DNA of 64,000 bases from Patescibacteria group bacterium. GTDB taxonomy: Bacteria > Patescibacteriota > Patescibacteriia > UBA1558 > GWA2-36-10. Location: assembly GCA_028718865.1 (NCBI GenBank), contig JAQUKX010000001.1, forward strand, positions 67-64,066, in the 5' to 3' direction. The notes under the pieces were generated by a model. The model was not told the DNA's origin and made no database searches. It worked only from the letters and a program-made list of their open reading frames with translations. Shown piece by piece: positions 17,378 to 49,575 of the stretch (position 1 is its first letter; each line of letters begins with the position of its first letter). Position numbers and translations under genes: made by a program.

Positions 17378-17383
17378 AAAAAT

Positions 17384-22004: not shown

Positions 22005-22214
22005 CTGTCATTACGAGGAATCCTGAGTCTGCCATTCTGGAGCGAGCGTAGCGAGCGATAGAATCCACTTGTCATTCTGGAGCGAGCGTAGCGAGCGATA
22101 GAATCTACCATTATTCCTTCCTCAGAGCATCGAGCGATAGAATCTACCATTGCAACCGCCTTCTTAGATTCTATCAGTCGTCGCTAGCTCCTCCTTCCAC
22201 AATGACAAAACAAA
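22005..22214 (+). repeat. Mosaic intergenic repeat cluster: two copies of the TGTCATTCTGGAGCGAGCGTAGCGAGCGATAGAATCYAC module, one CCATT…CCTCAGAGCATCGAGCGATAGAATCTAC module and one inverted GATAGAATC
   Basis: Direct reading. The same modules recur at seven or more other loci in the window. Confidence 0.8.
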
Positions 22215-25379: not shown

Positions 25380-25387
25380 AAATCAAT

Positions 25388-26831: not shown

Positions 26832-26848
26832 AAAAATTAATTATAAAA

Positions 26849-28296: not shown

Positions 28297-28299
28297 AAA

Positions 28300-29451
28300 T
28301 TATATTTTTACAAAATTAATTATATTGTTTACTCTGCTTCCCCAACTATACTCTTTTACTTTACAATAAGCTCCAGCAGCTAATTTTTCGCTTGAATTCT
28401 GATTATTGTACAAGTATAATATTTTTTCCGCTAAATTACTAGGATTATCCGGCTGGCAAAATAAACAATTTTCTTCATCTAGTATTTCTTTAATTGCCGG
28501 CAAATCAGAAGCTATTATCGGTCTATAGCTAGCCATATACTCAAACATCTTTAGAGGTGACATATAATAAGCATAATGCTGACTATAGGGGAAAGGCATA
28601 AGCAAAATATCAAAAGCTTTTTGATAAATAGGCAAATCAATAATACTCACTTTGGTAAGTAGTTTAATCTGATCAACCACCCCTTCTTCTTTGGCTAAAT
28701 TTTCATAAAAATCAATATCTGCTTGACTACCGCCTACTGCCCAAAAATAAATCTCTTGTTTTTTATCTTGCAAAATTCTTATAGCTTTAATTATGTCAGT
28801 TATTCCCTTATCTTCTCCCATGGTCTTAAAACTTCCAGTATAAGCGACTATTTTCAGATCTTGCCTAATCCCTAGTTTTTTTCTGGCTTCGTCTTTGCTC
28901 ATTTCAATATCAAATATTTTCAAATCTACTCCATCATGGGCTACCAAAATTTTCCCGGACGAAAAACCATTTTTAATAAATATATTTTTTAAATAATTTG
29001 TGGTTGTAACAATATAATCCGATTTTTTAGCCAAAAATTTAAAAAACCAAGTTTTGTTAATAGGCCAAGAATGACACTCATAAACGGTTTTATGCCCTCT
29101 AAGAGAAAATAGAAAAACAATTTCTGCACCTCTGCTAAAAACAAGATTGTCTTTCGGCAATCTAACAAAAAACAACCTGATTAAATAAAATAAATTTTGC
29201 AAATAAACCGCAAATTTACCAAATATGCTGTTATAATTTATAAAATCAAAACTTTTCAGGTATTTTATTTTAAAATTTTTGTCTAAACCATAAAAAGAAA
29301 AAAGGTCTTCTTTTATTTCATTTTTTCTAGTCGGCACTATTAGCTCTACCTCATGTCCGGCTCGGGCAAATTCCTCGCACATTTTAGCTATCTGGTAGCC
29401 ATGAGCTTTTTCCGTGGGAATCCTGATATTTGTTATATAGCTTATTTTCAT
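28300..29451 (-). CDS. Glycosyltransferase family 4 (GT-B)
   Basis: 383 aa with an N-terminal GT4 acceptor domain and a C-terminal Glycos_transf_1-like domain. Confidence 0.7.
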   Translation of the reverse strand: MKISYITNIRIPTEKAHGYQIAKMCEEFARAGHEVELIVPTRKNEIKEDLFSFYGLDKNFKIKYLKSFDFINYNSIFGKFAVYLQNLFYLIRLFFVRLPKDNLVFSRGAEIVFLFSLRGHKTVYECHSWPINKTWFFKFLAKKSDYIVTTTNYLKNIFIKNGFSSGKILVAHDGVDLKIFDIEMSKDEARKKLGIRQDLKIVAYTGSFKTMGEDKGITDIIKAIRILQDKKQEIYFWAVGGSQADIDFYENLAKEEGVVDQIKLLTKVSIIDLPIYQKAFDILLMPFPYSQHYAYYMSPLKMFEYMASYRPIIASDLPAIKEILDEENCLFCQPDNPSNLAEKILYLYNNQNSSEKLAAGAYCKVKEYSWGSRVNNIINFVKI

Positions 29452-29457
29452 GGATTT

Positions 29458-31299
29458 TTATTTAAATAGCTTATACCAAATCTGAAAAGTAATCAATGAC
29501 CAAATAGTATTGAGAGCATATTCTTTTTTCTCCATATGATTATCCAAAATTAGCTTTATTTCATCAAAATCAAAAAAATCTCTAGTGTCGGGATTATAAT
29601 CTGGCGACAATATTTCATAAGCCGTTTCTTTTAATCCTGTTCTAAGCCATTTGGCAGCTGGAGAAAACCAACCGGTCTTAGGCTTATTATATAAATAATC
29701 AGGTAAATATTCCCTTACTGCCTCCTTAAAAATCCTTTTACCTTGCTCTTTAGTGCCCAACTTATACTTAGCGGGAATAGAAAAAGCCAAATCTACCAAC
29801 TCTTTATCCAAAAAAGGTACTCTTTGCTCCAGCGCAAAAGCCATTGACAGTTTATCAGATTTGGCAAAAGATTCATCAGTCAGCCAGGTGCTAAGATCTA
29901 CTCTCATCAAATAGTCAGCATAATTCTTAAAAGGTCGCCCAAAATGCCTCTGGTTTATAATCTCCCTGCTTTTAGACAAATTATTGATATCTGCTTTCAA
30001 AAATCTTTTTACCATTTCCTCTTTTTGAGCACTAAACTGCCAAAACAAATCCAAACCACTTTGAGCATTGAGTTTCTTATACTCCTTTTCCTTATTCAAG
30101 CTTCTAGCCAAAGATTCCGCTAGCTTATTTTCTCTTATTATTTTTGGCAACTTTTGCCAGCTATCCACTAAGTTATAAAAATAATATCTCTGATAACCGC
30201 CGAATAATTCATCGCCGCCATCACCACCTAAAACAACGTCAACCTGCTTTTTAGCCTCTTTGGATAAAAGATAAGTGGCTACTTGCGTATGGTTGGACAC
30301 GAGTTCATCCATTTGATAAACCACTTTTTCTATATTTTCCGCCACATCCTTGGCCGAAACCAATAATTCATAATGCTCTGTCTGATAATATTGGCTATTC
30401 TTCCTAGCCAGCTGGCTATCTGCATTGAATTTTTCCTCTTCTAGATCAATATCAAATTTGACAGTAAAAGTTTTTATTTTATGACTCACTATTTTAGACA
30501 TTGAGCCCAAAATAGCAGTAGAGTCAACTCCACCACTTAGAAACAAGCCCAAAGGCCTGTCAGATATCAATTGTCTTTTGACTGCTGCATCAAATTTCTC
30601 TCTAATTGTTTTTTTGGCTTGATCATAAGAATAATTGGCTATCTCCGGTAATTGATAATAATTTTTGATAAATAATTTTCCTTTTTCCAAAATCAAATAA
30701 TTTCCAGCGGACAATTTCTTTATATGCTTAAACATTGTCAAAGGAGCGCTGATATACAAAAATCTAAAATAAAGATTAAGAGCGTCAAAATCCAAATCCT
30801 TTTCTATTTTATGCTCCAAAATTGCTTTTATTTCTGAAGAGAAAATAAATTTGCCATTTTTAAAATAATAAAAAAACGGCTTTATTCCAAAATGATCACG
30901 AGCGGCAAAAAGCTTATTTCTTTTTTTATCCCAAATAGCCAAAGCAAAAATGCCATTAAATTTTTGCAAACAGCTTTCGCCATAAGCAATATAAGCGTTT
31001 AAAATAACCTCCGTATCTGTATTGGAAAAAAAATTATAACCCTTGTCTAAAAGGTCTTTTTTTATTTCCTGAAAATTATAAAGCTCGCCATTATAGGTAA
31101 TAATATAATTGCCATCTTTACTTATCATAGGTTGATGCCCGGAAGAGGACAAATCTATTATGGATAATCTATTGTGCCCCAAAGATATCCCTTTATCTAT
31201 GAAAACACCCTGGTCATCAGGACCGCGATATTTGATTTTTTCATTCATCCGCTCTATCAATCCTTGGTCGGCAAAATTAAATCCGTTTACTCCGCACAT
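29458..31299 (-). CDS. asnB: Asparagine synthase (glutamine-hydrolysing) family amidotransferase
   Basis: N-terminal nucleophile MCGVNGF, the GATase-2 domain, and SGGVDSS PP-loop synthetase domain. Confidence 0.9.
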   Translation of the reverse strand: MCGVNGFNFADQGLIERMNEKIKYRGPDDQGVFIDKGISLGHNRLSIIDLSSSGHQPMISKDGNYIITYNGELYNFQEIKKDLLDKGYNFFSNTDTEVILNAYIAYGESCLQKFNGIFALAIWDKKRNKLFAARDHFGIKPFFYYFKNGKFIFSSEIKAILEHKIEKDLDFDALNLYFRFLYISAPLTMFKHIKKLSAGNYLILEKGKLFIKNYYQLPEIANYSYDQAKKTIREKFDAAVKRQLISDRPLGLFLSGGVDSTAILGSMSKIVSHKIKTFTVKFDIDLEEEKFNADSQLARKNSQYYQTEHYELLVSAKDVAENIEKVVYQMDELVSNHTQVATYLLSKEAKKQVDVVLGGDGGDELFGGYQRYYFYNLVDSWQKLPKIIRENKLAESLARSLNKEKEYKKLNAQSGLDLFWQFSAQKEEMVKRFLKADINNLSKSREIINQRHFGRPFKNYADYLMRVDLSTWLTDESFAKSDKLSMAFALEQRVPFLDKELVDLAFSIPAKYKLGTKEQGKRIFKEAVREYLPDYLYNKPKTGWFSPAAKWLRTGLKETAYEILSPDYNPDTRDFFDFDEIKLILDNHMEKKEYALNTIWSLITFQIWYKLFK

Positions 31300-31923
31300 T
31301 TATTTTTTCTTTAAAATAAAAAAATGATGGTAAGGGGACTCAAAAGCAATATTGTCTTTTACTAGCTCCAGACCAGCTTTTTGGATATGCTTTTTTATTC
31401 TTTTAAGCGGATAATTTTTTTTTCCTATTTCCCAATAATGCTCCCCTCTGAACTGATGAGCAATGGGTTTTTTATCAAACTTGTATTGCCATTTTTTGTA
31501 GCCAATTTTTGGAAGAAAAATTTTAAAGGAAAAATGACGCCCCCAATGCGGCAAGCTTAACAGTATATATTTTTTACTTACTCTTTTAAGTTCCGCTATA
31601 GCCTGATCAAAATCTTCAAAGGGTAAATGCTCTAGTACTTCAAAAGCACAGACCAAATCAAAACTATTATCAGCCAACGGTAATTTTCTTACATCTCCCA
31701 AAATATCCGGCGATAAATCTTCAGCTATATCTACGTTTTTATAATTTATCGTAGTGTTGTTTTTCAAATAGCTAGCCAAAACTTTATCGCCTACACCTAT
31801 TTCCAAAACTTCAGCCGGCTGCAAAGCTAGAATTTCTTTGATCTGATACCAATAGCTACTCCATCTATCCAAAGTAACATAAGAAGAAAAATTATAATGC
31901 TCTTTATCTACTTGCTTATTCAT
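31300..31923 (-). CDS. Class I SAM-dependent methyltransferase
   Basis: VLEIGVGD motif I and FDLVCAFEVLEHL. Confidence 0.7.
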   Translation of the reverse strand: MNKQVDKEHYNFSSYVTLDRWSSYWYQIKEILALQPAEVLEIGVGDKVLASYLKNNTTINYKNVDIAEDLSPDILGDVRKLPLADNSFDLVCAFEVLEHLPFEDFDQAIAELKRVSKKYILLSLPHWGRHFSFKIFLPKIGYKKWQYKFDKKPIAHQFRGEHYWEIGKKNYPLKRIKKHIQKAGLELVKDNIAFESPYHHFFILKKK

Positions 31924-32996
31924 TTATATTCTTTTAATATTTTTTCCACCAAAATTCCTATTTCATGGTTATTGGCCACTAGCTCCCTCAATTTCTTCCC
32001 CAATAATCTTCTTTCTTTTTTATCTTTGTTGATAAGAAAAATAATTTTGTCAGCCAGTCCCATTATATCATCTTTTTCATAACCCAGATAATCTTTATAA
32101 TCCGACAAAACATCATTTTTAACTGCATCATTATTTGACAAAACCAAGGTGCCACAAGCCATTGCCTCTAAAGACACTTTGTCCAAACCCCCTTCTTGGC
32201 ACATATGGACCAACAAATTTGCTCCTCTGAAATATTTTACCACTTGATCATTACTCACCGGCCCGACAAAAGAAACAATGTCTGACAATCCTTTTTCTCT
32301 GGCCATTGTTTTTATTTGCTCAAAATAATTTTCATCTGCCGTCATAACTGGGCCGCCGACAATATTAACAAAAATTTTCTTATTTATTTTTCTTTGCTTG
32401 ATTATTACCAAAGCTTCTATTAATTGTTCATATTTTTTTATCGGCGATATTCTGCCAACTGTCAAAATATTAAAAACATCATTGTCTTCAACTTGCTTGT
32501 CTTTTGGACTGAATTTTTCCGTATCTATGCCATGACCCATTACTTTTAATTTTTTGCTTTGCAAACGAAAACTACTATCTGAAGCGCTAAAAATAATATC
32601 CGTCAATTTTTCCGCTAGCTTCAAACTATTATTTATATTTTTATGGGTATACCACAAGCCGATTTTTTTGTGCATAATTTTCCAAAACCAAGCTCCCAAA
32701 ATCACATAAACCTGATTCATATGCACAAAAACATTTTCGTATTCTTTTCTGTATTGCCAGATGTATTTATAAAACCTAAAAATATATTTTATCCTTGATA
32801 CTCCGCTTTCTTTGCCCAGAGACAAAACTCGGACATTGTCCGGCAAATCATAATCTCCTTTATAAAGACAAATAACTATCACTTGCGAACAATGCTTGGC
32901 AAATTCTTTGAGCCAATAATGGAAAAATCCCAGTATTGGATCGTCTTTATCAACTTTTTGAGTCAAGATCAAAAGTTTCATAAAATACTTTGCCAA
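31920..32996 (-). CDS. Glycosyltransferase family 4
   Basis: C-terminal GT1/GT4 domain (…EGGLDKVSLEAMACGTLVLS…). Confidence 0.7.
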   Translation of the reverse strand: MAKYFMKLLILTQKVDKDDPILGFFHYWLKEFAKHCSQVIVICLYKGDYDLPDNVRVLSLGKESGVSRIKYIFRFYKYIWQYRKEYENVFVHMNQVYVILGAWFWKIMHKKIGLWYTHKNINNSLKLAEKLTDIIFSASDSSFRLQSKKLKVMGHGIDTEKFSPKDKQVEDNDVFNILTVGRISPIKKYEQLIEALVIIKQRKINKKIFVNIVGGPVMTADENYFEQIKTMAREKGLSDIVSFVGPVSNDQVVKYFRGANLLVHMCQEGGLDKVSLEAMACGTLVLSNNDAVKNDVLSDYKDYLGYEKDDIMGLADKIIFLINKDKKERRLLGKKLRELVANNHEIGILVEKILKEYK

Positions 32997-34057
32997 TTAT
33001 TTATAGTTGCTTCTCTTAGCTCCTCTCGGCTAGCAATCTTTTGGACAAAAAATTGAGTATTAGCCCCTAGCTTAGCAATCAGAACTCTATCTTTGACTAC
33101 TCTTTCCATAGCTTGAGTCAAAAGATCTAGGTTTCCTACTGGCACTATCAAGGCGTTTTTTTCATTTTCCGTTAGATAGCCGGCACAGCCCACATCCGTC
33201 ATTATCACCGGTAAACCAGCTACTACTGCTTCCGCTACAGCCACCCCATAACCCTCACTATCGGAACTAAGCAAAAAACAATCAGCTGTCTGATAAAATC
33301 CGGCCAAATTCTCCTGCCACAGAGCAAATTCAATTCTATCTTTGACTCTCAATTTTACAGCCAATTCCATCAGTTCCTGTCTTTGCGGTCCATCGCCCAC
33401 TATTACTAATTTTACTTTTTCCTCTTTGGGCAATTTAGCCAAAGCTTGAATTTGTAAAGCAATATTTTTGACTGGCACTAGCCGAGAAACAGTTAAAAAA
33501 ATAAAATGACCAGGATATTTTTGTTTTAAATCAATCTCAATTTTTTCTTTAACTATTCTTTCTCTATCCACAAAAACCGGCAAAACATAAATTTTATTTT
33601 TGTCTATTTTATAATCCTCTGTCAATTGGTGGGCTAGACGATGACTGACTGTCCTTATTTTATCCGCCTGCTTGATTGCCCGCTTAAATAAATATCTACG
33701 TAAAAAATTATTTTTTTCAAAGCCGTGTACCTGAATTTCCAATTTCAAGCCAAAACGCTTAGCAATCATGCCTCCCAAACAAGCCAAATAGGCCGTATCC
33801 TGAACTGTTAGTAAATCAAATTTTTCTTTTTTTAATATTTTGTTTAAAAAATTATAGATATTTTTCCAAGCCAAAAACTTATTGGCTCCGCTTATTCCTA
33901 TTGATCTTACTTTGGAGGCCAGTTGAGTTTCATTATTTTTTCCTGGCACTACTATCAAATATTTTTCCAATCTTTCCCCAACAAAAATAGCTCGCTTAGC
34001 TACTGCCGAGCCAGCATCAAGAATTCTATTGTCTAGTCCTAAAGATAAAACTTTCAT
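32978..34057 (-). CDS. Glycosyltransferase family 4
   Basis: …SEGYGVAVAEAVVAGLPVIMTDVGCA… is the E-x7-E GT4 motif. Confidence 0.8.
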   Translation of the reverse strand: MKVLSLGLDNRILDAGSAVAKRAIFVGERLEKYLIVVPGKNNETQLASKVRSIGISGANKFLAWKNIYNFLNKILKKEKFDLLTVQDTAYLACLGGMIAKRFGLKLEIQVHGFEKNNFLRRYLFKRAIKQADKIRTVSHRLAHQLTEDYKIDKNKIYVLPVFVDRERIVKEKIEIDLKQKYPGHFIFLTVSRLVPVKNIALQIQALAKLPKEEKVKLVIVGDGPQRQELMELAVKLRVKDRIEFALWQENLAGFYQTADCFLLSSDSEGYGVAVAEAVVAGLPVIMTDVGCAGYLTENEKNALIVPVGNLDLLTQAMERVVKDRVLIAKLGANTQFFVQKIASREELREATINNWQSIL

Positions 34058-35184: not shown

Positions 35185-35432
35185 ATCATTCCTTTTGTCA
35201 TTCTGGAGCGAGCGTAGCGAGCGATAGAATCTACCATTGTCCTTACCTCAAAGCATCGAGCGATAGAATCCTTCTGTCATTCCCGATTTTTTATGTCATT
35301 CCCGCGAAAGCGGGAATCTACTTTGAGATGAGTAAGAGCTAGATTCCGGCTCGGGGGCCGGAATGACAAGAAAAAAACCTGTCATTCCCGTCCCCGCCTT
35401 CGCGGGGATAAACTCCAGCGGGAATCTACGCC
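35185..35432 (+). repeat. Mosaic repeat cluster containing perfect hairpins: ATTCCCGC-GAAA-GCGGGAAT, ATTCCGGC-TCGGGG-GCCGGAAT and CCCCGC-CTTC-GCGGGG
   Basis: Direct reading. The cluster lies between two minus-strand glycosyltransferase genes and shares modules with the clusters at 46740-47355. Confidence 0.8.
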
Positions 35433-36529
35433 CTCTCATACAACTCCCTAACTTGATCAATTATTGGCTGCCAATCATATTTCCGAACACTGACACTAGC
35501 TCTGGCTGACAATTGTTTTCTCAACTCCTCATCTTTGAGTAATTTAACTATCGCCTCTGTTATTTGCTCAGAATTCTTTGCTTCCACCAAGAGCCCATTT
35601 TCATTGTCCTGTATTACATCGGGAATACCACCCACTCTGGTGCCTATTACCGGCGCTCCACAAGCTTGAGCTTCTATAAACACTATCCCCAATCCTTCAG
35701 CCAAAGACGGGCAAATAAATACTTCAGCGCTGGCCAACTGTTCTAGAGCTTCTTGATGAGGCAAGGCACCTTTTAACTCTACGCTTCCAGCTATATTCAA
35801 CTCTTTGATCAGATCTTCTATTTCCTTTCTTTTGTCCCCTTCTCCTACCAAAACCAATTTAGCTTCCGGTACTTGTGAAATTACTCCTGGCCAAGCCTTG
35901 ACCAAATAATCCAGTCCTTTTTCCCAAGACAAGCGCGCCAGACAAACCACCTTGTTTTTTTCCTGAATTATGCCTTGAGGCACTTTGGAAAAATCAACAC
36001 CGTTGGGTATCAGCTGAATTTTTTCATCCGCTACTCCCAATCGTCTAGCTCTGTCGGCCAAAAAACTACTAATAGCAGTAATCCTATCCGGGCTTTTGTG
36101 AATACTTTTCCAAAAAAACCGAATAAGAAACTTTTTTTGTTTCTTGGGATCATCTAGATCACCACTTTGCAAAGTCAATATTCGCTTGGCTTTTTTATAA
36201 AAATATTTACTAAAAACCAAAGCAATGCCAGCATAACTTTCCATAATGGCATGAATTATCTTTGGTTTTATTTTTATAATCGGCCGATTAGCCAAAAGCG
36301 GAAACAAGGCCTTGTCTATCTGTTTATGGCCTATGCCTACGCGGATTATTTTAAAATTTTTCCGCTCTTCTTCTTTGGGCAAATTTTTATCTAATCTGGC
36401 TGTCACCAAGCTAATCTCATAAACATCTCCTAATCTTTCTACTAGCTCCTTGACCATTTGTTCGGCGCCAGAAATAAAAGGATCATAGAAAGCCGACAAA
36501 ACAACGATTTTAGTTTTGCTTACTGGCAT
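35426..36529 (-). CDS. Glycosyltransferase family 4
   Basis: …AEGLGIVFIEAQACGAPVIGTRVGGIPDVI…. Confidence 0.8.
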   Translation of the reverse strand: MPVSKTKIVVLSAFYDPFISGAEQMVKELVERLGDVYEISLVTARLDKNLPKEEERKNFKIIRVGIGHKQIDKALFPLLANRPIIKIKPKIIHAIMESYAGIALVFSKYFYKKAKRILTLQSGDLDDPKKQKKFLIRFFWKSIHKSPDRITAISSFLADRARRLGVADEKIQLIPNGVDFSKVPQGIIQEKNKVVCLARLSWEKGLDYLVKAWPGVISQVPEAKLVLVGEGDKRKEIEDLIKELNIAGSVELKGALPHQEALEQLASAEVFICPSLAEGLGIVFIEAQACGAPVIGTRVGGIPDVIQDNENGLLVEAKNSEQITEAIVKLLKDEELRKQLSARASVSVRKYDWQPIIDQVRELYERA

Positions 36530-37496
36530 AATATTGATAGACTTTTTTTAGATTCTCATCTAGATTATCTTCTATTTTTTCACCCAGTAGTTTTTCCATT
36601 TTACTGACATCTGGACTGCGATATTTGATTTCATAGCCGCGCTCAGGCAAAAACTCCGGCTTGAGATCTTTTCCCCCTATTTTGATAATTTTTTGCGCCA
36701 GTTCCAAGATAGTAGTCTGCCGACCCAAGCCTATATTTATCACCTGGCCGTTGGCCTGATCGCTTAGTAGCGCTTTGACAGCCAAACGGACATTGTCTTT
36801 GACATAGATAAAGTCCCTAGTTTGATACCCTGTGCCAAAAATTATCGGTGGCTGGTTCTGTAAAACTTTTTGGATAAAAATGCCAATGACAAAGCCATAG
36901 TCGGAAGATTCTTGTCTTTCTCCAAAGACATTAAAAAATCGCAAGGAGCAAGTCGGTATGCCATATTGATCATTGTAAACTTTCATCATCTTCTCGCCCA
37001 TCAGTTTGACCAAGGCGTACAAGCTGGTGCTATGGGTCTGATAAGCCAGCTCTTTGCCGTTGTCTTCAGTTAGCGGCATTTCATTGAGAGTGCCGTAGGC
37101 TTCTGAGGAAGAAGCAAAAACCACTTTTTTGATAGCGAACTCTTTGGCCAGAGACAAAATATTTTTAATGCCGACTATGTCATCTAAGACCAAAAGCGGT
37201 TGTTCCATCACCCGTTTTACTCCCAAAACTGCCGCATAGTGAAAAATATAATCAAATTTGTATTTGGCAAAAATCTGATGCAATTCCTCAAAATTATTAA
37301 CATCGCCTTTGATAAATTCAAAGTTGCCAGTAGCTTTGGCTTGCGCCAAATTTTCTTCTTTACCAGTAGAGAGATTGTCTAGAGCCACCACCCTGGCGCC
37401 TTCAGCCAAAAGCTCATCGCAAAGGTGCGAACCGATAAACCCTGCTCCGCCTGTGACCAAAATACTAGCATTTTTCAATTTGTCCATTTTTTCCAT
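36510..37496 (-). CDS. NAD-dependent epimerase/dehydratase (UDP-sugar 4-epimerase/4,6-dehydratase family)
   Basis: VTGGAGFIGSHLCDELL and YALVK (YxxxK). The start is placed at the internal Met MEKMDKL. The ORF continues upstream to 37559. Confidence 0.85.
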   Translation of the reverse strand: MEKMDKLKNASILVTGGAGFIGSHLCDELLAEGARVVALDNLSTGKEENLAQAKATGNFEFIKGDVNNFEELHQIFAKYKFDYIFHYAAVLGVKRVMEQPLLVLDDIVGIKNILSLAKEFAIKKVVFASSSEAYGTLNEMPLTEDNGKELAYQTHSTSLYALVKLMGEKMMKVYNDQYGIPTCSLRFFNVFGERQESSDYGFVIGIFIQKVLQNQPPIIFGTGYQTRDFIYVKDNVRLAVKALLSDQANGQVINIGLGRQTTILELAQKIIKIGGKDLKPEFLPERGYEIKYRSPDVSKMEKLLGEKIEDNLDENLKKVYQYYASKQN

Positions 37497-37694
37497 ATTT
37501 TTATGTATTTTATAGCTATAAAACATAATAACAATACAATAAAAAGGCAGAAAAATCAACTAAACAAACATTGAATCCGCCTAGGGAAAAATAAGCAAAA
37601 TATCTTGCTTTTAATTGTTTTATTCTATAAAATTATAACAACAATAAAATAATAAATCAATTATTAAATAAGCCAAAATTAGCTAAAAAATAAA

Positions 37695-38882
37695 ATGAAA
37701 AAAGAGTTAAAAGGCAAAAAAATCCTCTATCTTATTACCCAGAGCAAATGGGGCGGCGCCCAGAAATATGTCATTGACCTGGCTCGTCATTTTAGCCAAA
37801 AAAATGAAGTCCATATTGCCTATGGTGAAAGCCGCCAGCTTGACCCTTATTTTGCCCAAGAATGCCAAAAGCTAAAAGTCAAAACTATCCCCCTGCCTTA
37901 CCTTTGCCGCAACATAGATCTGGGCAAGGATTATCTAGCAATGATTGATTTGAGCAAGCTCTTTGGCAAAGAAAGTTATGATTTGATTCATCTCAACAGC
38001 TCCAAAGCCGGCCTGCTGGGCAGTCTGGCCGCCAAATACTATGGTCTCAATTTGCTAAACGCCAAACTGCGCCTGATCTATACTGCTCACGGCTTTGTCT
38101 TCAATGAACCGCTTTCCAAATTCAGAAAAAAAATCTACAAGCTATCGGAAACTTTTTCTACAACTATTCAGCATTTGATTATCGCCGTCTCCGATGCTGA
38201 CCGCCAAAGCGCCATTGAAAATAAAATAACTCATCCCGCCAAAATTTTTACTGTCCACAATGGCTTGGATTTTTCCCAATATGATTTTTATCCAACTGAC
38301 CAAGCCCGACAAAAACTTGGTCTGGAAAAAGATCAAATATACTTCGGTACTATCGCCAGCTTCTACCTTACCAAAGGCCATACTTATCTGCTAGATGCTG
38401 TCAAAGAGCTACGCACTACAAACTGGCCGCTGTTTGACAAATCCGCCTGGGTATTTATCGGCGACGGGCCGGAAAAAGAAAATATCAGCCAAAAAATAAA
38501 AGCCGCGGATTTGCAAGACAAGATAAAAGTTTTTGACCCTTCGCCGGAAGGTGACCACAAATACCTCAAAGCTTTTGATTATTTTATCCTGCCTTCAGTC
38601 AAAGAAGGTTTGCCTTATACTATTTTGGAAGCCGGACTGGCTCAAGTGCCTGTTGTTGCTACCCGAGTCGGTGGCCTGCCAGAGATAATCACTGACAAAA
38701 AAAACGGCCTACTGGCCACTGCTGCCAATCCCCTTTCTCTGGCTGACAAGATAAAAAAAATCAGCGCTGATCAAAAAATGTCGTCAGCTCTGGCTCAGGC
38801 AAATTATCAAAACATCAAAAGCAACTTTTCTCTAGACAAAACCCTATCTCAGACCGAAGAGCTTTATCTGAAGCTGTTTTAA
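37695..38882 (+). CDS. Glycosyltransferase family 4
   Basis: …KEGLPYTILEAGLAQVPVVATRVGGLPEII…. Confidence 0.8.
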   Translation: MKKELKGKKILYLITQSKWGGAQKYVIDLARHFSQKNEVHIAYGESRQLDPYFAQECQKLKVKTIPLPYLCRNIDLGKDYLAMIDLSKLFGKESYDLIHLNSSKAGLLGSLAAKYYGLNLLNAKLRLIYTAHGFVFNEPLSKFRKKIYKLSETFSTTIQHLIIAVSDADRQSAIENKITHPAKIFTVHNGLDFSQYDFYPTDQARQKLGLEKDQIYFGTIASFYLTKGHTYLLDAVKELRTTNWPLFDKSAWVFIGDGPEKENISQKIKAADLQDKIKVFDPSPEGDHKYLKAFDYFILPSVKEGLPYTILEAGLAQVPVVATRVGGLPEIITDKKNGLLATAANPLSLADKIKKISADQKMSSALAQANYQNIKSNFSLDKTLSQTEELYLKLF

Positions 38883-38959
38883 TTAAGCAAGGTCACAACC
38901 AACGACCAAAAATAAGTAAAATTAAGAAGAAAAACCGCCCAGAGGGCGACAAAAAAGCG

Positions 38960-39250
38960 ATGAACAAACAATACTTTGTTTATATTTTAGCTAGCTATAA
39001 ACACGGAACCTTGTATACAGGAATAATAAGTGATTTAAGTAAACGAATATTACAGCATAAAGAAAAATTCTATCCTCAATCTTTTACTGCTAAATACAAT
39101 ATAAATAAACTGGTTTATTATGAAATACATGAAGATCCTTATGAGGCAATATCCAGAGAAAAACAAATTAAAAACTTATTACGGATTAAAAAAATAAAAT
39201 TAATTGAAGAAAAAAATCCTAACTGGCAAGATCTACATAATGAGCTATAA
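38960..39250 (+). CDS. GIY-YIG nuclease family protein (stand-alone 96-aa domain)
   Basis: YFVYILASYKHGTLYTGIISDLSKRILQHKE matches the GIY-YIG catalytic motifs (GIY…YTG…R…QH…E). Confidence 0.75.
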   Translation: MNKQYFVYILASYKHGTLYTGIISDLSKRILQHKEKFYPQSFTAKYNINKLVYYEIHEDPYEAISREKQIKNLLRIKKIKLIEEKNPNWQDLHNEL

Positions 39251-39306
39251 GCCTGTCCTTCTGGAGCGAGCGTAGCGAGCGATAGAACCTACCATTATTC
39301 CTTATT
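39251..39306 (+). repeat. Single copy of the TGTCCTTCTGGAGCGAGCGTAGCGAGCGATAGAACCTACCATT repeat module
   Basis: Direct reading. It abuts the GIY-YIG stop codon. Confidence 0.7.
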
Positions 39307-39344
39307 AAATCAAAAACCAGCCCATATCGGCCGGTTTTTTTAGT

Positions 39345-41528: not shown

Positions 41529-41584
41529 AACTTAATTTATTTTACTTGTCATTGCCGAGCGAGGCGGGCGTATGCTCATCCACT

Positions 41585-41710
41585 TGTCATTCTGGAGCGA
41601 GCGTAGCGAGCGATAGAATCCACCATTGTCATTCTGGAGCGAGCGTAGCGAGCGATAGAATCCACCATTGTCATTCTGGAGCGAGCGTAGCGAGCGATAG
41701 AACCTACCAT
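41585..41710 (+). repeat. Three contiguous copies of the 42-bp unit TGTCATTCTGGAGCGAGCGTAGCGAGCGATAGAATCCACCAT, preceded by a related degenerate copy at 41546-41584
   Basis: Direct reading. There are no spacers, so it is not CRISPR. It produces the spurious ORF 41546..41791. Confidence 0.9.
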
Positions 41711-41740
41711 TGCCCTTACCTCAAAGCACAAACAAAACCC

Positions 41741-42511
41741 CTACTCCAAATCCAAAAGCATCTGCAAACGATCTATTTCCTGTTGCTCTAGACTGCCCAC
41801 TACCTTTTCATACTCCCGCCACATTTCCACTGCCCTTGAATAATCCTGCTTAGTTCTTTCCAGATAATAAGCATATTCTTTATAAATATTCCTTCTGGTA
41901 GCCGAATTTTTGATGCCTGTCTGATAAATATCATCAGCCTTGAGCGGATCATTGGAATAACTGACATACAGACTAGCCAGTCGTGTATAAGTCTGCTCCT
42001 CATTAGGATAAAGCTCCAGCGCTCTATAGAGATGTTTAGCTGACTCCTGATATTGCCCCATCATTACATAAAGCGTGGATAAACTAATTATAGTTTTATA
42101 ATCTTCCGGCCATTTTTCCAGCAAGCGGAAATAATGCTCCTCAGCCAGAGCATTTTGCCCCAGCAAATAATAATTATAAGCGATCATATAATAATCCTCT
42201 TTGAGATCAGTAAACTGGGGCTGGGAAGGCTCATTGCTCTCTATTGCTGCCTCTGACTTGGCGATTTCCGCCATGACCATAGCCTTGAAATCTTCCGGCG
42301 GCTCTACTGCCCCTACCTCTATTCTCTCTGGATTATTTTCGAAATATTTTTGAGCATCAGCTGAGTCAAAAAACGCCTCTTGTTGGCTGTCTTGAGCTCT
42401 CTGATAGCTGTTATAAGCCCAAATTATGCCAATAGCGAGTATAATGGCCAAAACCAACAACCAAATGCCTTTTGGTCTGTTTTTTGCCTGATTTATTTCA
42501 TTACTTTCCAT
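41741..42511 (-). CDS. TPR-repeat protein with N-terminal membrane anchor
   Basis: N-terminal TM (IWLLVLAIILAIGIIWA) and multiple TPR-like helices. Confidence 0.6.
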   Translation of the reverse strand: MESNEINQAKNRPKGIWLLVLAIILAIGIIWAYNSYQRAQDSQQEAFFDSADAQKYFENNPERIEVGAVEPPEDFKAMVMAEIAKSEAAIESNEPSQPQFTDLKEDYYMIAYNYYLLGQNALAEEHYFRLLEKWPEDYKTIISLSTLYVMMGQYQESAKHLYRALELYPNEEQTYTRLASLYVSYSNDPLKADDIYQTGIKNSATRRNIYKEYAYYLERTKQDYSRAVEMWREYEKVVGSLEQQEIDRLQMLLDLE

Positions 42512-42572: not shown

Positions 42573-42775
42573 GGCAATGTCATTAAGCCTGTCATTCTGG
42601 AGGGAGTCGGGCGTATGCCCGACGACCGATAGAATCCACCATCTGTCATTCTGGAGCGAACGCAGTGAGCGATAGAATCTACTTGTCATTCTGGAGCGAA
42701 CGCAGTGAGCGATAGAATCCACCATTGTCTCTGCCTCAAAGTATCGAGTAATAAAACCCGTCTGTCATCCCGCCC
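42573..42775 (+). repeat. Mosaic repeat cluster: B-type module with the GTCGGGC-GTAT-GCCCGAC hairpin plus two TGTCATTCTGGAGCGAACGCAGTGAGCGATAGAATC modules and a CCATTGTCTCTGCCTCAAAG module
   Basis: Direct reading. Confidence 0.8.
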
Positions 42776-42786
42776 CAAAAACAAAG

Positions 42787-42810
42787 CCCAGCCTCTCGCG
42801 AGAGGCTGGG
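42787..42810 (-). terminator. Intrinsic terminator of the surface-protein gene: the palindrome CCCAGCCTCTCGCGAGAGGCTGGG followed by a U-rich tract on the minus strand
   Basis: Near-identical to the terminator at 4200-4223. The minus strand continues CUUUGUUUUUGG. Confidence 0.55.
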
Positions 42811-42860
42811 TACTTTGTCTTCCTTAACTAAGTCAGGAAATACCTTACTAGCTCAAACTA

Positions 42861-45800
42861 TTACAGAGTAACTGCAATTGTTTGGGTGTCGGTTGGTAAG
42901 TTCTTGACATAAGTGGAATCTAGCCAGTCTGAAGATGTTCCGTCTGCCAAGTGAGGCACAGCAGAACGATCAGACCAGATAAAGCCAGTTTCGTAAAGGC
43001 TGATTAGAGTATAAGTAGTAGAAGTACCAGCTGTAGCTGCGGCTGCTGAAGCATTGATATAAGTACTCAATTGCTTATAACCTGATCCATCTAAGCCAAT
43101 ACCTGCCTTCAATTCATAGGTCTGGCTAGCGCCAGCAGCAATAGTCTGCTCCTGGGTAGTAGTGACAGTAATCAAGCTACCGCTTGGTGTCCAGCTGACA
43201 TTTGACTCGTTCAAAGCTGAGGAGTCTCCCTGTTTGTACAACTTGACGCTATTGGCATCAATAGTCACGCCAATTGAGGAAGCTGTAGTAAAGGAAATTT
43301 GTCTCCAGCTTAGAGGAGCTACGGCATCAGCCGTGACGGTAAAGCGGGAAATAGTCTGAGTGCCTCCAGCCAAAATAGTGGTAGGCAAAGCGGCCAAGGT
43401 AATAGTTGGCTTAGTAGCTCTCACTATCATGGAATTACCATTAACGGGACCTCCCGTGTAAGTATATCCTGTCACACCAGATGACTCGCCCTGGGCACTA
43501 AAGACAGTGGCACTGCCAGTAGAAGCCACTAGGTCTAATCTAGCTGAATTACCTGATACTCCGCCTTGGTTGGCAATAGTGGTCAAGTCAGCTTTGACGG
43601 TTAATACCGCTGTGCTGTCTTTAGCCACATACATACCTAGATTGTAGAACTGAGCTACTCCACTTCCGTCCAAGTATCCATAAGCAGTGGCCGTACCGGT
43701 CTTAGTTGGGTATTCTAGTACTACTCTAGAAATTGTGGCTGCTACACCACTAGCACCGGTAATCTGCAAAGTGTTGATGAAATGCGCTTCGTTTGTAGCG
43801 CTAAATTCAACAGCATTGAGAGTAACGGCTGGCAATCCAGCTACCACAATAGTAGCATCTGGTCGGCTGCCAGCAGCATTAGCTGTAACAGCTCCAGCAG
43901 CAATTGCCATGGTCTGCAAAGTATCTCCGGCGGCAACCTGATTAGTGTTGGTCACTTTAGAAGTACCCTCACCAGCTACTACCAAAGTAATAACAGCTGA
44001 TGGTAGTCCTGATTTGACATCTGCATAGACATCCACCACTTTACTCTGACCAGCATTGAGCGACAGCTTATTGCCGACATTGAAGGTAGTAGTGCCTGAA
44101 GTAGGCATAGTCACGCGGGTAGCCAATTCAGTAGTACCCTGCATCAATTTGACATTGGATACTTCGCCAGAAGTAGCTCCGCTTAGGTAAATGACATTGA
44201 CGTCAATACCTTCAGTAGCACCAGCGCTCACAGTAAATGCGCCAATTCTGGCATTGAGAGCTGGCGAAGTTACATTTTGGTTACCATAAGCAGCAAACTT
44301 AGCCATAGACAATGCTGATTCAGTAACAGTCAAGGTATTACCTTCTGCTCCAGGCACAGTGACTGTCTGCAAGGAAACTTGTCCTTGAGCGTCATTGCCA
44401 GCACTGATTTCTACTTTTACCAATCCACTGGTAATGTCTACACCAGTAGCTGTCTTGATATCCGCATAGATATCCAGCATTTTGGCTGTACCAGCTGGCA
44501 CAATCAAGCTAGAGCCAAAAGTAAAGTTGACATCGGTATCTTCAGTCAAGTTCCTAGTAGAACCAACTTGTACACCATCAAAATAAACTTTACCGTTTTG
44601 TAAACCGCCATTAAGAGCAATAGAAGTAGTGGCTTTTACATTCAAGCTCCTAACTCTTACATCCTCACCAGAAGCCTCTACCTTAAAGGTAGCCAATTTT
44701 ACATTGGTGGCCTTAGCTGCTACTTGTCCGCTAGGAGAAGTATTGTCTCTGACTATGGACAAAGTACCAGCTTGGATTTCAAATTGTCCAGAAGCAGTCA
44801 AAGCTGACCATGAAGTGCTGCCAGAAGTAAATGACTGGGTAAACACTCCATAACCCATGTCTTTGACTATGATGTCAGAAGCATCTCGGACATCAAATTT
44901 AAATGTTCGAGTAGATCCTTTGACAATGTCAATTACCATGGACAAGGTGCGAGTATTGCCTTTGGCAATAGCATAAGGAGAATTGGACAAGTCAAAGAAA
45001 ACCTCTCCGTCCGCATTCATAGTAGCTGTGCCAATAGTAACACCGGCTACTTGCAAGCGGAAATTATCCACATCACCTACGCCAATACTGCCGATTTTGG
45101 TCAAACGCAATCCATGTAAGTGAAGATCCTGATCAGTAGCAGTTAAGCTGATTTTGAAAGCTTCAAAATCTTTTTCATCGGAATTAACCTCAACTGTTCC
45201 AGTTGGGATCATAGTACCGGTGATAACTGCATAGCCAAGATCAGTTGCTTGAGCAGTGCTCATCACATTACCGACCAAAGGATAAGAGCCGGATAGTGAA
45301 GAAGCATTGCTTACTACTTCAGTCAAGTTAAAACCAATGGTCTTACTGGCTGAAGTTGGAACTTCCAAATCAGCTTTTAGCCAGACAGTTCTGGTAGCTC
45401 CAGCTGGAATGGTGATAATACCACTAGCTGAAGTGTCATTGAAGGTCAAAATCTTGGAAGATAGCGAACCTCCTTCTACCAATCTTTCACTGCCATAATA
45501 CAAATAGGCATTGCGAATGTCGCTGTCAGCGGAAATGCCTGTTCTCTCAAATTTCATTTGAGTGACCCTGACACTGCCAGCTGAAGAAGCAGTCAAGTTC
45601 ACTGCCAAAAATGGCACTAAAGCTTGAGCAGTGTTACTATCATCAGAAATGATAGTGGCTGACACTGGGTTGTTGGCTGACATAGATAGAGTCAAGCCAC
45701 CAGCTGGTGTAACCGGAGTAGAGCCTTCGGCCGGCATAAATCCGGACAAAGCTACTTCCTCACCAGTGATGGATGATCCCATGCTCCAGCCGGAAACATT

Positions 45801-46418
45801 GGGCACGCTGATGACATTGCTGTATTTGAAGCCATTGACTTCAAAAGCATCGGCATCGGCAAATGGCCTTACCTGGCTGCTGCTGGAGACATAGTAAATG
45901 TCTGAACCAACCTGCAACAAGGTTCCGATTGGGTGGGTGCTTCCCAAATCAGATCCAGCTACATAGCTGGATGAGAAATAGCCCGGAATTACATCCATTA
46001 CTCTGGAAGCCCAGTTGGCTCCATAGAGATTTGAGGCTACTTCAGCTGTAGGAATCCAGCGGATGACTCCGCCCGGCTCCACAGCGTAAACGCGAGCTGT
46101 ATTCTCGTGGGTAATCAATTTGGTACCAGCACGATAGGTGACAGCTCCGCCGTCTGGATACATATCCAGCTCGGCTACGCTTACTCTGACTACGTCATTG
46201 AAGTTCTCATACCAAGTGAAATAAGTCTTGGCATCAGGAAAGACATATTTCCTTCCATCAGAACCAATGTAGTAGACAGCTGCATCCTTAGCGCCTTGTA
46301 GAGCAAGCAAAGATCCTGCTCCATAGCTACCAGCTGCATCTACTTTTAGTCCTCCAAGGGACCATAGGACAGTGGTAAGCATCAAAGCGAAAACAAGAAA
46401 TCTTTTTGTTAAATTCAT
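42861..46418 (-). CDS. Large secreted surface protein (1185 aa), a putative S-layer or adhesin with Thr/Ser/Ala/Gly-rich beta-repeat architecture
   Basis: Signal peptide MNLTKRFLVFALMLTTVLWSLGGLKVDAAG. There is no C-terminal TM or sorting motif. Low-complexity beta-rich repeats occur throughout. Confidence 0.65.
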   Translation of the reverse strand: MNLTKRFLVFALMLTTVLWSLGGLKVDAAGSYGAGSLLALQGAKDAAVYYIGSDGRKYVFPDAKTYFTWYENFNDVVRVSVAELDMYPDGGAVTYRAGTKLITHENTARVYAVEPGGVIRWIPTAEVASNLYGANWASRVMDVIPGYFSSSYVAGSDLGSTHPIGTLLQVGSDIYYVSSSSQVRPFADADAFEVNGFKYSNVISVPNVSGWSMGSSITGEEVALSGFMPAEGSTPVTPAGGLTLSMSANNPVSATIISDDSNTAQALVPFLAVNLTASSAGSVRVTQMKFERTGISADSDIRNAYLYYGSERLVEGGSLSSKILTFNDTSASGIITIPAGATRTVWLKADLEVPTSASKTIGFNLTEVVSNASSLSGSYPLVGNVMSTAQATDLGYAVITGTMIPTGTVEVNSDEKDFEAFKISLTATDQDLHLHGLRLTKIGSIGVGDVDNFRLQVAGVTIGTATMNADGEVFFDLSNSPYAIAKGNTRTLSMVIDIVKGSTRTFKFDVRDASDIIVKDMGYGVFTQSFTSGSTSWSALTASGQFEIQAGTLSIVRDNTSPSGQVAAKATNVKLATFKVEASGEDVRVRSLNVKATTSIALNGGLQNGKVYFDGVQVGSTRNLTEDTDVNFTFGSSLIVPAGTAKMLDIYADIKTATGVDITSGLVKVEISAGNDAQGQVSLQTVTVPGAEGNTLTVTESALSMAKFAAYGNQNVTSPALNARIGAFTVSAGATEGIDVNVIYLSGATSGEVSNVKLMQGTTELATRVTMPTSGTTTFNVGNKLSLNAGQSKVVDVYADVKSGLPSAVITLVVAGEGTSKVTNTNQVAAGDTLQTMAIAAGAVTANAAGSRPDATIVVAGLPAVTLNAVEFSATNEAHFINTLQITGASGVAATISRVVLEYPTKTGTATAYGYLDGSGVAQFYNLGMYVAKDSTAVLTVKADLTTIANQGGVSGNSARLDLVASTGSATVFSAQGESSGVTGYTYTGGPVNGNSMIVRATKPTITLAALPTTILAGGTQTISRFTVTADAVAPLSWRQISFTTASSIGVTIDANSVKLYKQGDSSALNESNVSWTPSGSLITVTTTQEQTIAAGASQTYELKAGIGLDGSGYKQLSTYINASAAAATAGTSTTYTLISLYETGFIWSDRSAVPHLADGTSSDWLDSTYVKNLPTDTQTIAVTL

Positions 46419-46739
46419 TTTGTCTTCTTTTGTTAACTTGTTCGCTAAACCATGTTTTTCCTTCTATTTTATGGACATCTGCTTGCCTCGGGCAAGCTGA
46501 CTAAAACCATCGCGCCAGGTCCCTCGGAAAAATCCGAGCCGACCTTTCAGGCCCCTGGACCGACAGGCCCAAAAAACGAGGGGGAAAAGCAAAATGTTTA
46601 GGAACATTAATTAGATCCCGCAAGCAAAGCACCGCTTTCTGCCTTCTTAAGTAAAGCTTTGGCGGCGACCTTGTCCTTTTTGGACAAAATCTTACGGGGA
46701 TAACCCCTAAATCGCGCGCGATTAAGCGATAAGTTAGGG
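46419..46739 (-). promoter_or_regulatory. Long GC-rich structured 5' leader/promoter region of the surface-protein gene, with several hairpins and the 14-bp perfect palindrome AATCGCGCGCGATT (46710-46723)
   Basis: Visible hairpins are GCTTGCC-TCG-GGCAAGC, GGTCCCTCGG-AAAAAT-CCGAGCCGACC and GGGG-ATAA-CCCC. The region is markedly more GC-rich than its surroundings and contains no credible ORF. Confidence 0.4.
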
Positions 46740-46960
46740 ATATTAGCTTTTGTCATTCTGGAGCGAGCGTAGCGACCATCTGTCATTCTGGAGCGAGCGT
46801 AGCGAGCGATAGAATCTACCATTGTCTCTGCCTCAAAGCACCGAGCGATAGAATCTACAGACCGTTCCTTTCAGTCATTCCCGTCCCCGCCTTCGCGGGG
46901 ATAAACTCCAGCGGGAATCTACTTTGAGATAAAGAGAATCGATAGAATCCACTTGTCATC
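46740..46960 (+). repeat. Mosaic repeat cluster (A, E, C and D modules)
   Basis: Direct reading. It produces the spurious ORF 46607..46822. Confidence 0.8.
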
Positions 46961-47084
46961 AGACAAATCCAGACAAAAACTCATACCCTCAACCTAACGC
47001 TTCTGGCGTGACTAGCGCCAATCGCGTCTGTTAAGAGGTTTGTATTATAAATTATTAAATAACTATTATCATTGCGATGCCAAT

Positions 47085-47355
47085 CGTAGCGACCACCTGT
47101 CATTCTGGAGCGAGCGTAGCGAGCGATAGAATCTACCATTGTCTCTGCCTCAAAGCACCGAGCGATAGAATCTACCATTGTCTCTGCCTCAAAGCACCGA
47201 GCGATAGAATCTACAGACCATTCCTTTCAGTCATTCCCGTCCCCGCCTTCGCGGGGATAAACTCCAGCGACCTTCTTTTCAGTCATTCCCGCGAAAGCGG
47301 GAATCTACTTTGAGATAAAGAGAATCGATAGAATCTACCATTGTCTCTGCCTCAA
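47085..47355 (+). repeat. Mosaic repeat cluster: an A module, two copies of a 45-bp E-type unit (CGAGCGATAGAATCTACCATTGTCTCTGCCTCAAAGCAC...), then C and D modules and a terminal E module
   Basis: Direct reading. It produces the spurious ORFs 46981..47178 and 47077..47313. Confidence 0.85.
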
Positions 47356-49429: not shown

Positions 49430-49575
49430 TTTCTGTCATTCTGGAGGGAGTCGGGCACGTGCCCGACGACCGATAGAATCTACTTGTCATTCTGGAGCGA
49501 ACGCAGTGAGCGATAGAATCCACCATTGTCCCTACCTCAAAGCATCAAGCGATAGAATCCCTTTGTAATTCCCTC
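49430..49575 (+). repeat. Mosaic repeat cluster (B-type module with the GTCGGGC-ACGT-GCCCGAC hairpin, an A-variant and an E module)
   Basis: Direct reading. Confidence 0.8.

Follow-up and report, generated by a model that had tools for sequence, protein, structure and literature searches.

The stretch of DNA considered here, which we call the window, is made of 64,000 nucleotides (nt) from contig JAQUKX010000001.1, belonging to a metagenome-assembled genome (MAG) of a Patescibacteria group bacterium (assembly GCA_028718865.1). Type IV pilus and Che-like genes lie at its left, ribosomal protein genes with secY at its right, and between 22 and 50 kb eight intergenic sites are occupied by a modular family of short repeats of the form GTCATTCY-[variable core]-RGAATCYAC. 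The genes standing beside these repeats code for glycosyltransferases, a Wzy_C/TPR protein, a TPR protein, a protein of 1185 amino acids (aa) without any Pfam domain, and an ECF sigma factor with a DUF5667 protein. In their midst, an ssn-like gene on the + strand (38960-39250) specifies a 96-aa single-domain GIY-YIG protein (Pfam PF01541, E=1.5e-11). An initial annotation had proposed that the repeats formed a dispersed modular family, and this was confirmed, since all of the seven other sites that it listed besides its exemplar contain the family. It missed both the GIY-YIG gene and two repeat units located on the - strand (22160-22206 and 35340-35367).

With truncated copies included, the + strand has about 24 units and the - strand two, with about zero expected by chance. 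Summed together, the eight sites take up approximately 1.55 kb, in line with the earlier estimate of some 1.5 kb. The frame GTCATTCY-N10-40-RGAATCYAC has 16 matches, all of them on the + strand, and a 35-nt core, GTCATTCTGGAGCGAGCGTAGCGAGCGATAGAATC, occurs 12 times when up to three mismatches are allowed, again always on the + strand, the expectation being zero in both cases (from 100 shuffles for the core). The terminal motif GAATCYAC has 22 occurrences on the + strand and none on the - strand, against an expectation of 2.5. At their extremities the units read YGTC...GAATC-CAC or GAATC-TAC. The exemplar array (41584-41712) had been taken as three perfect tandem copies of 42 bp: the array is real, with a period of 42, but Tandem Repeats Finder counts 3.1 copies with 97% matches, copies 1 and 2 being identical and copy 3 ending in GAACCTAC, not in GAATCCAC. 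The four sub-modules previously named are all present as written, and the so-called linker is a diverged unit itself (TGTC tag retained, 3' half intact, CGAGCGATAGAATCTAC). A resemblance to REP/BIME elements and to the dRS3 elements of Neisseria had also been noticed, and it holds: the minimal module TGTCATTCCCGCGAAAGCGGGAATCTAC contains ATTCCC-N8-GGGAAT, and a 20-bp palindrome of the dRS3 type, ATTCCCGCGAAAGCGGGAAT, is found at 35298-35317 and at 47285-47304, the other units having ATTCT...AGAAT or interrupted stems.

That all copies are intergenic is nearly correct, but the unit at 35381-35429 overlaps the stop codon of the gene at 35426-36529. Outside of the 22-50 kb region the window has no unit, the remainder consisting of tightly packed operons. 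Each of the two - strand units is paired with a + strand unit, forming gene-less head-to-head dimers (22135-22206 and 35295-35367) that are also seen in other MAGs, with spacers of about 18-25 nt. When a collection of genomes, whose representatives do not comprise the source genome, was scanned with a 31-mer of the unit, only eight matches were retrieved, from four Patescibacteria-type MAGs and one labelled Gammaproteobacteria, where the copies are usually head-to-head dimers. The same 31-mer is absent from viral contigs. Rfam gave no match, be it for the whole window at gathering thresholds or for the 41.4-47.5 kb region at E<=1, and a tRNA and tmRNA scan of the window returned nothing. As a side observation, a contig from a MAG labelled 'uncultured Gammaproteobacteria' (L003, CAYHSW010000036.1) carries at 4664-4698 a unit of the Patescibacteria type, with an intermediate GCGCAGT core; this may reflect a mis-binned contig or horizontal transfer.

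The units differ in the way they may fold. Several of the modules make stable hairpins under nearest-neighbour DNA folding, with z scores from -2.9 to -4.9. The 42-nt unit displays an apparent direct repeat, GAGCGA...GAGCGA, which becomes self-complementary if tandem G·A pairs are permitted, and it is probably a rod hairpin made of such pairs and capped by a GCGNAGC mini-hairpin. In this model ATTCTG faces TAGAAT (five pairs and a G·T), followed by GA/GA, GC/GC and GA/GA steps, then by the GCGNAGC heptamer. Tandem sheared G·A pairs are stable in DNA. It is further known that GCGNAGC mini-hairpins have melting temperatures of 70-76 °C whatever the N, which conventional thermodynamic models fail to explain, and that their stability is far greater in DNA than in RNA (PMC13037366). 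The model is suggested by a comparison among 19-22 distinct units of the 42-nt class, collected from the window and from other loci. At the positions of the Watson-Crick helix, 94% of the cells are paired, and half of the pairs tested (6/12) have changed on both sides. As cases in point, pair 13-26 is CG in 12 units, GC in 5 and UA in 1, and pair 17-22 is CG in 9, GC in 4, UA in 2 and AU in 1. Not one of 500 shuffles reached the pairing and covariation observed, and shifting the partner columns brought pairing down to 25-38%. The outer GA/GA step is invariant. The window holds two subfamilies, GCGTAGC and ACGCAGT, related by a G-C to A-T exchange together with the free N of the GNA loop, and the GCGCAGT core of the L003 unit is the G·T intermediate between the two.

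The initial annotation held it very unlikely that these repeats would match a described family. In fact they match two published descriptions, that of the CGTC-tagged repetitive extragenic palindromes (REPs; Di Nocera, 2013, PMC3733652) and that of the Ssn-related motifs (SRMs; Chenal, 2025, PMC11893778). In CGTC-tagged REPs the tag (CGTC or TGTC) is unpaired, the stem has 8-9 bp and is nearly always initiated by A-T, the loop has 4-5 nt and the tail is CCA-like; they are mostly organized as head-to-head dimers, head-to-tail arrangements being negligible (PMC3733652). They were divided into families CGTC-1 to CGTC-4, which include RPE-4 and RPE-6 of Rickettsia and, within CGTC-1, the neisserial dRS3, and they were reported from five phyla, of which Patescibacteria is not one, with 'no dedicated transposase' (PMC3733652). 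The repeats of the window have the CGTC/TGTC tag, the stem opening with complementary A-T, the CCA-like tail, the intergenic location and the lack of an associated transposase in common with them, as well as the mosaic clusters known in Neisseria and Wolbachia. They depart from them in two respects. A stem of 8-9 bp with a loop of 4-5 nt fits only the minimal units (ATTCCCGC-GAAA-GCGGGAAT, 8 bp and 4 nt), whereas the 42-nt and long-hairpin units, which start with AT as all units do, have closing stems of 5-6 bp and large structured cores. Furthermore, head-to-tail runs dominate in the window, with two head-to-head dimers, while the published families show the reverse; head-to-head dimers are the rule for the same unit class in other MAGs.

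The second description brings in an enzyme. Ssn proteins are single-domain GIY-YIG proteins (CDD cd10448) that act as site-specific nucleases of single-stranded DNA, and their genes are flanked by hairpins, termed NTS in Neisseria and SRM in general, with an architecture remarked to be similar to that of insertion sequences (IS) (Chenal, 2025, PMC11893778). Membership of the Ssn clade is set there by cd10448 and by tblastn matches to SsnA of N. meningitidis at E<1e-10 with >75% coverage. SsnA binds its hairpin in single-stranded DNA only and on one strand only, cuts a few nt upstream, and does not bind RNA; the C that comes after the palindrome is the base that matters most to binding, the three nt that precede the palindrome are the most crucial for cleavage, the identity of the loop is dispensable, and extensions at the loop position are tolerated (PMC11893778). 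In Neisseria meningitidis the system modulates natural transformation, and NTS cluster beside membrane-protein genes (PMC11893778). The window reproduces many of these features: its repeat is a hairpin with a direction, marked by a (C/T)GTC tag, an ATTC...GAAT stem and, past the palindrome, a C; a neighbouring gene specifies a single-domain GIY-YIG protein some 100 aa long; the loop position admits extensions; and the units cluster near envelope and surface genes in the style of the hundreds of copies of the known system. The NTS consensus, CGTCATTCCCGCGMAVGCGGGAATCYRG, and the minimal unit of the window, TGTCATTCCCGCGAAAGCGGGAATCTAC, differ at the first and last base only. Across 19 distinct units taken from the window and 12 other loci, the directional determinants of Ssn, namely G1, T2, C3 and the final C, do not vary, and all 16 strict matches to the frame in the window carry GTC before the palindrome and C after it. 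The differences lie in the host, here a Patescibacteria MAG, in the cores, most of which comprise 21-35 nt and fall outside of the published pattern, in the head-to-tail arrays on one strand, and in the gene, which has a same-strand downstream unit only instead of an NTS-ssnA-NTS bracket. Neisserial intergenic mosaic elements are arrays of repeat modules bounded by dRS3-type units and placed beside variable surface-component genes. The sites of the window seem to resemble them as module arrays delimited by dRS3-type units near surface genes, and to differ from them in that the interleaved modules are diverged or truncated units of the family itself, not unrelated RS elements. The main text of Chenal (2025, PMC11893778) mentions neither candidate phyla, nor tandem arrays, nor replication strands, and our search of the literature found no later paper on the Ssn/SRM system.

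The GIY-YIG gene, present as a sole copy in the window, is physically tied to the repeats. Four bases 3' of its stop codon begins the single unit of site C (39253-39296, + strand), a slightly degenerate member of the 42-nt type (GTCcTTC...GAAcCTACC). The 96-aa protein has 7822 homologs at E<=1e-5, many of them on very short contigs; residues Y8, Y19, G21, R29, H33, E67 and N86 are invariant across 35 homologs, the catalytic residues of GIY-YIG enzymes (two Tyr, Glu, Arg and Asn) being retained, and their spacing suggests that Y8, Y19 and E67 are the equivalents of Y6, Y17 and E64, the residues mutated in SsnA. A search of the PDB yielded just a distant UPF0213 relative, 1ZG2, as a weak match (E=1e-3), and no NCBIfam model matches the protein. 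It is 50% identical (E=7e-35) to the product of another metagenomic locus, L064, whose flanks exactly fit the Neisseria NTS consensus. The flanks of the gene were then read in 80 metagenomic loci coding for proteins 46-63% identical to that of the window, using a strict detector of units (perfect arms of at least 5 bp, within 150 nt of the gene). A + unit was found upstream in 50 of these 80 relatives, a - unit downstream in 42 of 78 and both in 35 of 78, as compared with 15 of 1600 shuffled flanks. In a typical relative, a unit GTCATT-[stem-loop]-AATC ends a few tens of nt before the start codon, and the reverse-complement unit GATT-[stem-loop]-AATGAC lies 0-20 nt past the stop codon. The stem varies by lineage (ATTCCCGC, ATTGCGAG, ATTCTGGAG, ATCCTGAG), the GTCAT...ATC frame being retained. 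In the closest relatives (72-78% identity, in three independent contexts) a unit of the ATTCTGGAG...CGATAGAAT class, to which the window units belong, stands 2-6 nt past the stop codon, on the strand of the gene.

One of these relatives, L089, is syntenic with the window, with the same succession of a glycosyltransferase gene, ssn and a convergent Wzy_C/TPR gene. There, the flanking genes are 80-81% identical in DNA to their counterparts, and the units 92-98%; being conserved far above their neighbours the units look constrained, though recent spread would give the same pattern. At the site orthologous to site C, L089 has four to five units and the window has one, with boundaries at the direct repeat GATAGAAYCTACC|ATTAT, a polymorphism between genomes of the kind that the initial annotation had suggested looking for. 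We also noticed that in L090 (JAIOSE010000057.1, 1360-1647) a 76%-identical homolog of ssn is placed between genes for an RmlD-like epimerase and an NTP-transferase, within a sugar-nucleotide/polysaccharide cluster, and the association of ssn with surface-polysaccharide loci may thus be recurrent in this clade.

We consider it likely that the repeats of the window are Ssn-related motifs, in other words CGTC-tagged REPs, and that the 96-aa GIY-YIG protein is their nuclease partner. The class is one that has already been described, and the additions made here are the Patescibacteria host, the extension of the core and the unusual layout of the arrays. The earlier proposal of an enzyme dedicated to the repeats was right, but the candidate then put forward, a REP-associated tyrosine transposase (RAYT) whose gene would lie elsewhere in the genome, was not, the associated gene being the GIY-YIG gene of the window. 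In this reading a unit would be composed of an unpaired (Y)GTC tag, a stem beginning with ATTC and ending with GAAT, a C and a tail of the CYA type, the core being free to vary: it may be a GAAA tetraloop, a long or nested hairpin or, in the 42-nt unit, a G·A rod ending in the GCGNAGC mini-hairpin. When the + strand becomes single-stranded, each unit would fold. By analogy with Neisseria, a nuclease of the Ssn type would bind at the stem base, between the GTC tag and the C, and nick a few nt 5' of the tag. That SsnA tolerates any loop, and extensions of it, would explain why constant termini surround interchangeable cores, which gives the family its modular look. Arrays that bracket surface-polysaccharide and envelope genes could mark these regions for cutting when their DNA is single-stranded, as with DNA entering via the type IV pilus machinery encoded at 4-17 kb, so that recombination would be modulated; the same arrays might also serve as direct repeats for the gain and loss of units and for the exchange of cassettes. 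The data establish how the units are built, their linkage to the gene, the structural covariation, a conservation of units that exceeds the background divergence, and unit numbers that differ from one related genome to another, while binding, cleavage and biological role are all extrapolated from the work on Neisseria.

Several points weigh against this reading, or at least against parts of it. The published SRM search pattern, HGTCWYN(0-2)YYVSBRHN(0-5)WNVSBRGN(0-2)RNCYNB, has two matches in the window (35294-35321 and 47281-47308; 0.03 expected from 100 dinucleotide shuffles), an excess that speaks for the reading, but it fits only two of about 26 units; the other 24 or so miss it because their cores are too long. 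The gene of the window lies outside of the canonical SRM-ssn-SRM bracket that is common among more distant relatives: in the window as in L089, L090 and L092-L094, a unit is found downstream only and none upstream, and in the window that unit is on the same strand and slightly degenerate. The connection to SsnA of N. meningitidis goes through relatives that are flanked by NTS-consensus repeats. The 42-nt unit, when folded with nearest-neighbour DNA parameters, reaches -2.8 kcal/mol (z=+0.48), no better than shuffles, so that the case for its proposed structure is made by covariation and by what is known about the chemistry of G·A pairs and GNA loops; the alignment used for covariation was selected with a pattern that fixes TCTG...TAGA, and for that reason the inner columns alone are informative. 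The near-exclusive + orientation and the head-to-tail arrays are left unexplained by the Ssn model, in a family that is typically head-to-head. A role in transformation would be an extrapolation from Neisseria. The view that the 42-nt unit is a decayed unit without hairpin, derived from its z score, was entertained and then rejected after the compensatory changes and the GCGNAGC/tandem G·A architecture had been recognized.

If the assignment is correct, a candidate-phylum repeat that seemed to be an orphan is filed where it belongs, within the CGTC-REP/SRM class, with the gene of its partner nuclease in the same window. The system would then extend to Patescibacteria, among surface-polysaccharide genes near a type IV pilus locus, which parallels the clustering near surface genes in Neisseria. 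Less than one-tenth of the units present here are recognized by the published SRM pattern, and surveys based on that pattern will consequently undercount such families. The long units provide a natural hairpin of G·A pairs and GNA loop, supported by covariation, that may help define what Ssn proteins recognize, at a time when Ssn enzymes are under development as tools for cutting single-stranded DNA. Our understanding of the way the Ssn system works is unchanged by these results.

The alternative that survives best shares this identification and differs in the biological role only. The repeats could be selfish mini-elements without function for the host, non-autonomous and similar to MITEs (miniature transposable elements with inverted repeats) or REPINs, derived from an IS-like SRM-ssn-SRM element and spread by the GIY-YIG nuclease, local recombination having then created the arrays. 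In many relatives the gene does stand between inverted units, as an IS does between its terminal repeats, a similarity remarked upon by Chenal (2025, PMC11893778). Gene-less head-to-head dimers exist in the window and in other MAGs, the many homologs of ssn on very short contigs are what is expected of multi-copy elements, and the number of units differs at an orthologous site. Against this, ssn is single-copy in the window and syntenic with that of a relative whose flanking genes have about 80% identity, which argues for vertical inheritance and not for recent transposition; neither target-site duplications nor intermediates of transposition are evident; strand transfer is not a known activity of GIY-YIG single-strand nickases; and the degree of conservation of the units points to constraint, with the reservation about recent spread made above. 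We see this as a tenable minority view, clearly less probable than the main reading.

It is much less probable that the units act at the level of RNA, as stabilizers of transcript ends, terminators or processing sites, although many REPs have been suggested to be RNA elements (Di Nocera, 2013, PMC3733652). The hairpins formed by several modules are stable, and units placed between genes would be co-transcribed with their operons. But no unit is followed by a T-tract, and in a scan of the 35-50 kb region for terminators and promoters none was called terminator-like, the counts not exceeding those of shuffles; canonical terminators are separate features, at 39316-39343 and 42786-42811. At sites B, D, E, F, G and H, which have - strand genes on both sides or on the transcribed side, the units are antisense to these genes, while those of site A are sense between + strand genes and that of site C is sense to ssn, and this mixture means that the orientation of the units does not follow transcription. 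In addition, tag and tail are conserved yet unpaired, which fits recognition by a protein, SsnA ignores RNA (PMC11893778), and the GCGNAGC mini-hairpin is a structure that favours DNA (PMC13037366). The role in termination or transcript stability considered at the outset thus found no support.

A still slimmer chance is left to classical REP/BIME elements mobilized by a RAYT encoded elsewhere in the genome. REPs, BIMEs and REPINs associated with RAYTs (Bertels and Rainey, 2011, PMC3116915) share with the repeats of the window their short, palindromic and intergenic nature, an unpaired tag, inverted dimers, mosaic clusters, and even a dedicated enzyme that acts on single-stranded hairpins and whose gene is flanked by repeats. 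Their tag, however, is GTAG and not (Y)GTC, and their enzyme is an HUH/Y1 transposase, not a GIY-YIG nuclease. No RAYT flanked by CGTC repeats was found in any species (PMC3733652), a different family of enzymes is directly linked to the repeats here and in relatives, and no RAYT/IS200-like protein and no Y1_Tnp, integrase or other transposase domain was found among the 68 open reading frames (ORFs) of the window.

Least credible of all is an assembly artefact, whereby the tandem units would have been collapsed or spuriously expanded, as the family occupies eight sites with differing orders of modules, recurs in independent assemblies from different samples and varies with compensatory changes. 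The assembly artefact that the initial annotation had envisaged as a refutation is therefore unlikely. Assemblies made from short reads do break at units: L095 (Logan SRR22315506), from the same organism, is 100% identical to the window over 35689-39288 and breaks inside the unit that follows ssn, and L089 likewise ends inside a unit, so that the copy number of the 3.1-copy array cannot be guaranteed. The end of the L089 contig lies in a unit upstream of the Wzy_C gene, and many homologs of ssn are found on contigs of less than 2 kb. Breaks of this kind mean that the repeats fragment metagenome assemblies.

There is a marked asymmetry between the strands of the window. The + strand is C-rich in every 2-kb segment and carries 6.6 of the 60 kb of coding sequence, and all eight sites have units on it; this cleavable strand is presumed to be the template of the leading strand. 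A general rule, according to which the cleavable strand would always be the C-rich or non-coding one, holds for the eight sites of the window and fails in eight loci of other MAGs, which vary in skew and in coding strand and in which the units form head-to-head dimers. It was dropped as a rule, and is kept as a local observation on sites that are possibly not independent of each other. A more speculative proposal, to which we lend little credence, is that the SRM of this lineage evolved a stem specific for single-stranded DNA (invariant tandem G·A pairs and a GNA-triloop mini-hairpin), deployed as one-strand head-to-tail arrays that flank surface-polysaccharide and envelope genes. Were it true, standard folding programs and the published SRM pattern would both miss such a stem, and the strand that becomes exposed in vivo as single-stranded DNA would have shaped the arrays. 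The nuclease might then spare the lagging-strand template of its own chromosome and cut incoming DNA; this would amount to a system of single-strand restriction that spares self, in organisms dependent on the uptake of DNA.

Taken one by one, the sites differ in the units that they assemble, on the + strand unless stated otherwise. Site A (22005-22214) has a short unit, two units of the 42-nt type, a unit of the linker type and the - strand unit (22160-22206) of its head-to-head dimer. Site B (35185-35432) has a 42-nt unit, a linker unit and a truncated unit, together with a minimal NTS-like unit (35294-35321) that makes a head-to-head dimer with the - strand unit at 35340-35367, and a nested-hairpin unit (35381-35429). 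Beyond the lone unit of site C, site D (41546-41740) comprises a degenerate hairpin-type unit (41548-41583), the 3.1 head-to-tail 42-nt copies (41584-41712) and a partial linker module. Site E (42573-42775) holds a long-hairpin unit (42591-42639), two variant units with the ACGCAGT core, a linker unit and fragments, and in site F (46740-46960) one truncated unit is accompanied by a 42-nt unit, by units of the linker and nested-hairpin types and by a 3' half-unit. Site G (47085-47355) is made of a 42-nt unit, two linker units that form a 39-bp tandem (47120-47214), a nested-hairpin unit that is truncated, a minimal unit resembling NTS (47281-47308), and a 3' half-unit as well as part of a linker. 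Site H (49430-49575) joins the long-hairpin unit at 49435-49483 and the variant-core unit at 49486-49523 to a linker unit. Three ORFs of 71-81 aa cross repeat arrays, at 46607-46822 (-), 41546-41791 (+) and 47077-47313 (+). They have no Pfam match and are probably spurious, but the C-terminal part of the first is located outside of the repeats, and there a genuine small gene might exist whose start codon lies further on.

As for the surroundings of the repeats, a complete-looking type IV pilus set extends over 4255-20494, with PilM, PilC (T2SSF), PilB (T2SSE) and large pseudopilins endowed with Laminin_G_3 or Fib_succ_major domains. Three tandem pilin-like paralogs, which account for a set of 194-nt repeats, are found at 4255-5814, and genes of the CheY, CheA, CheW and MCP types come after the pilus set, the presence of which bears on DNA uptake in this lineage. 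Between sites A (22.0 kb) and B (35.2 kb), the region 24000-34000 forms an island of low GC content (30-33%, as compared with about 42%), with glycosyltransferase, methyltransferase, asparagine-synthase-like and polysaccharide-deacetylase genes; its location between two repeat sites suggests that a surface-polysaccharide cassette has been exchanged. Immediately upstream of where the gene for the 1185-aa protein (42861-46418) starts, a GC-rich region of 192 nt (46419-46610, - strand) folds with -68.6 kcal/mol (z=-4.3 against shuffles); it has no match in Rfam and might represent a small RNA or a structured leader. Finally, two heptamer arrays, (TATGGCT)n and (TTATTGC/TTATGGC)n, are present at 2414-2458 and 63601-63639, respectively. 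They are 82% alike when compared as 38-mers, and each occupies the short interval separating two - strand genes and lies immediately upstream of a start codon, that of an ABC ATPase gene for one and that of rpsS for the other.

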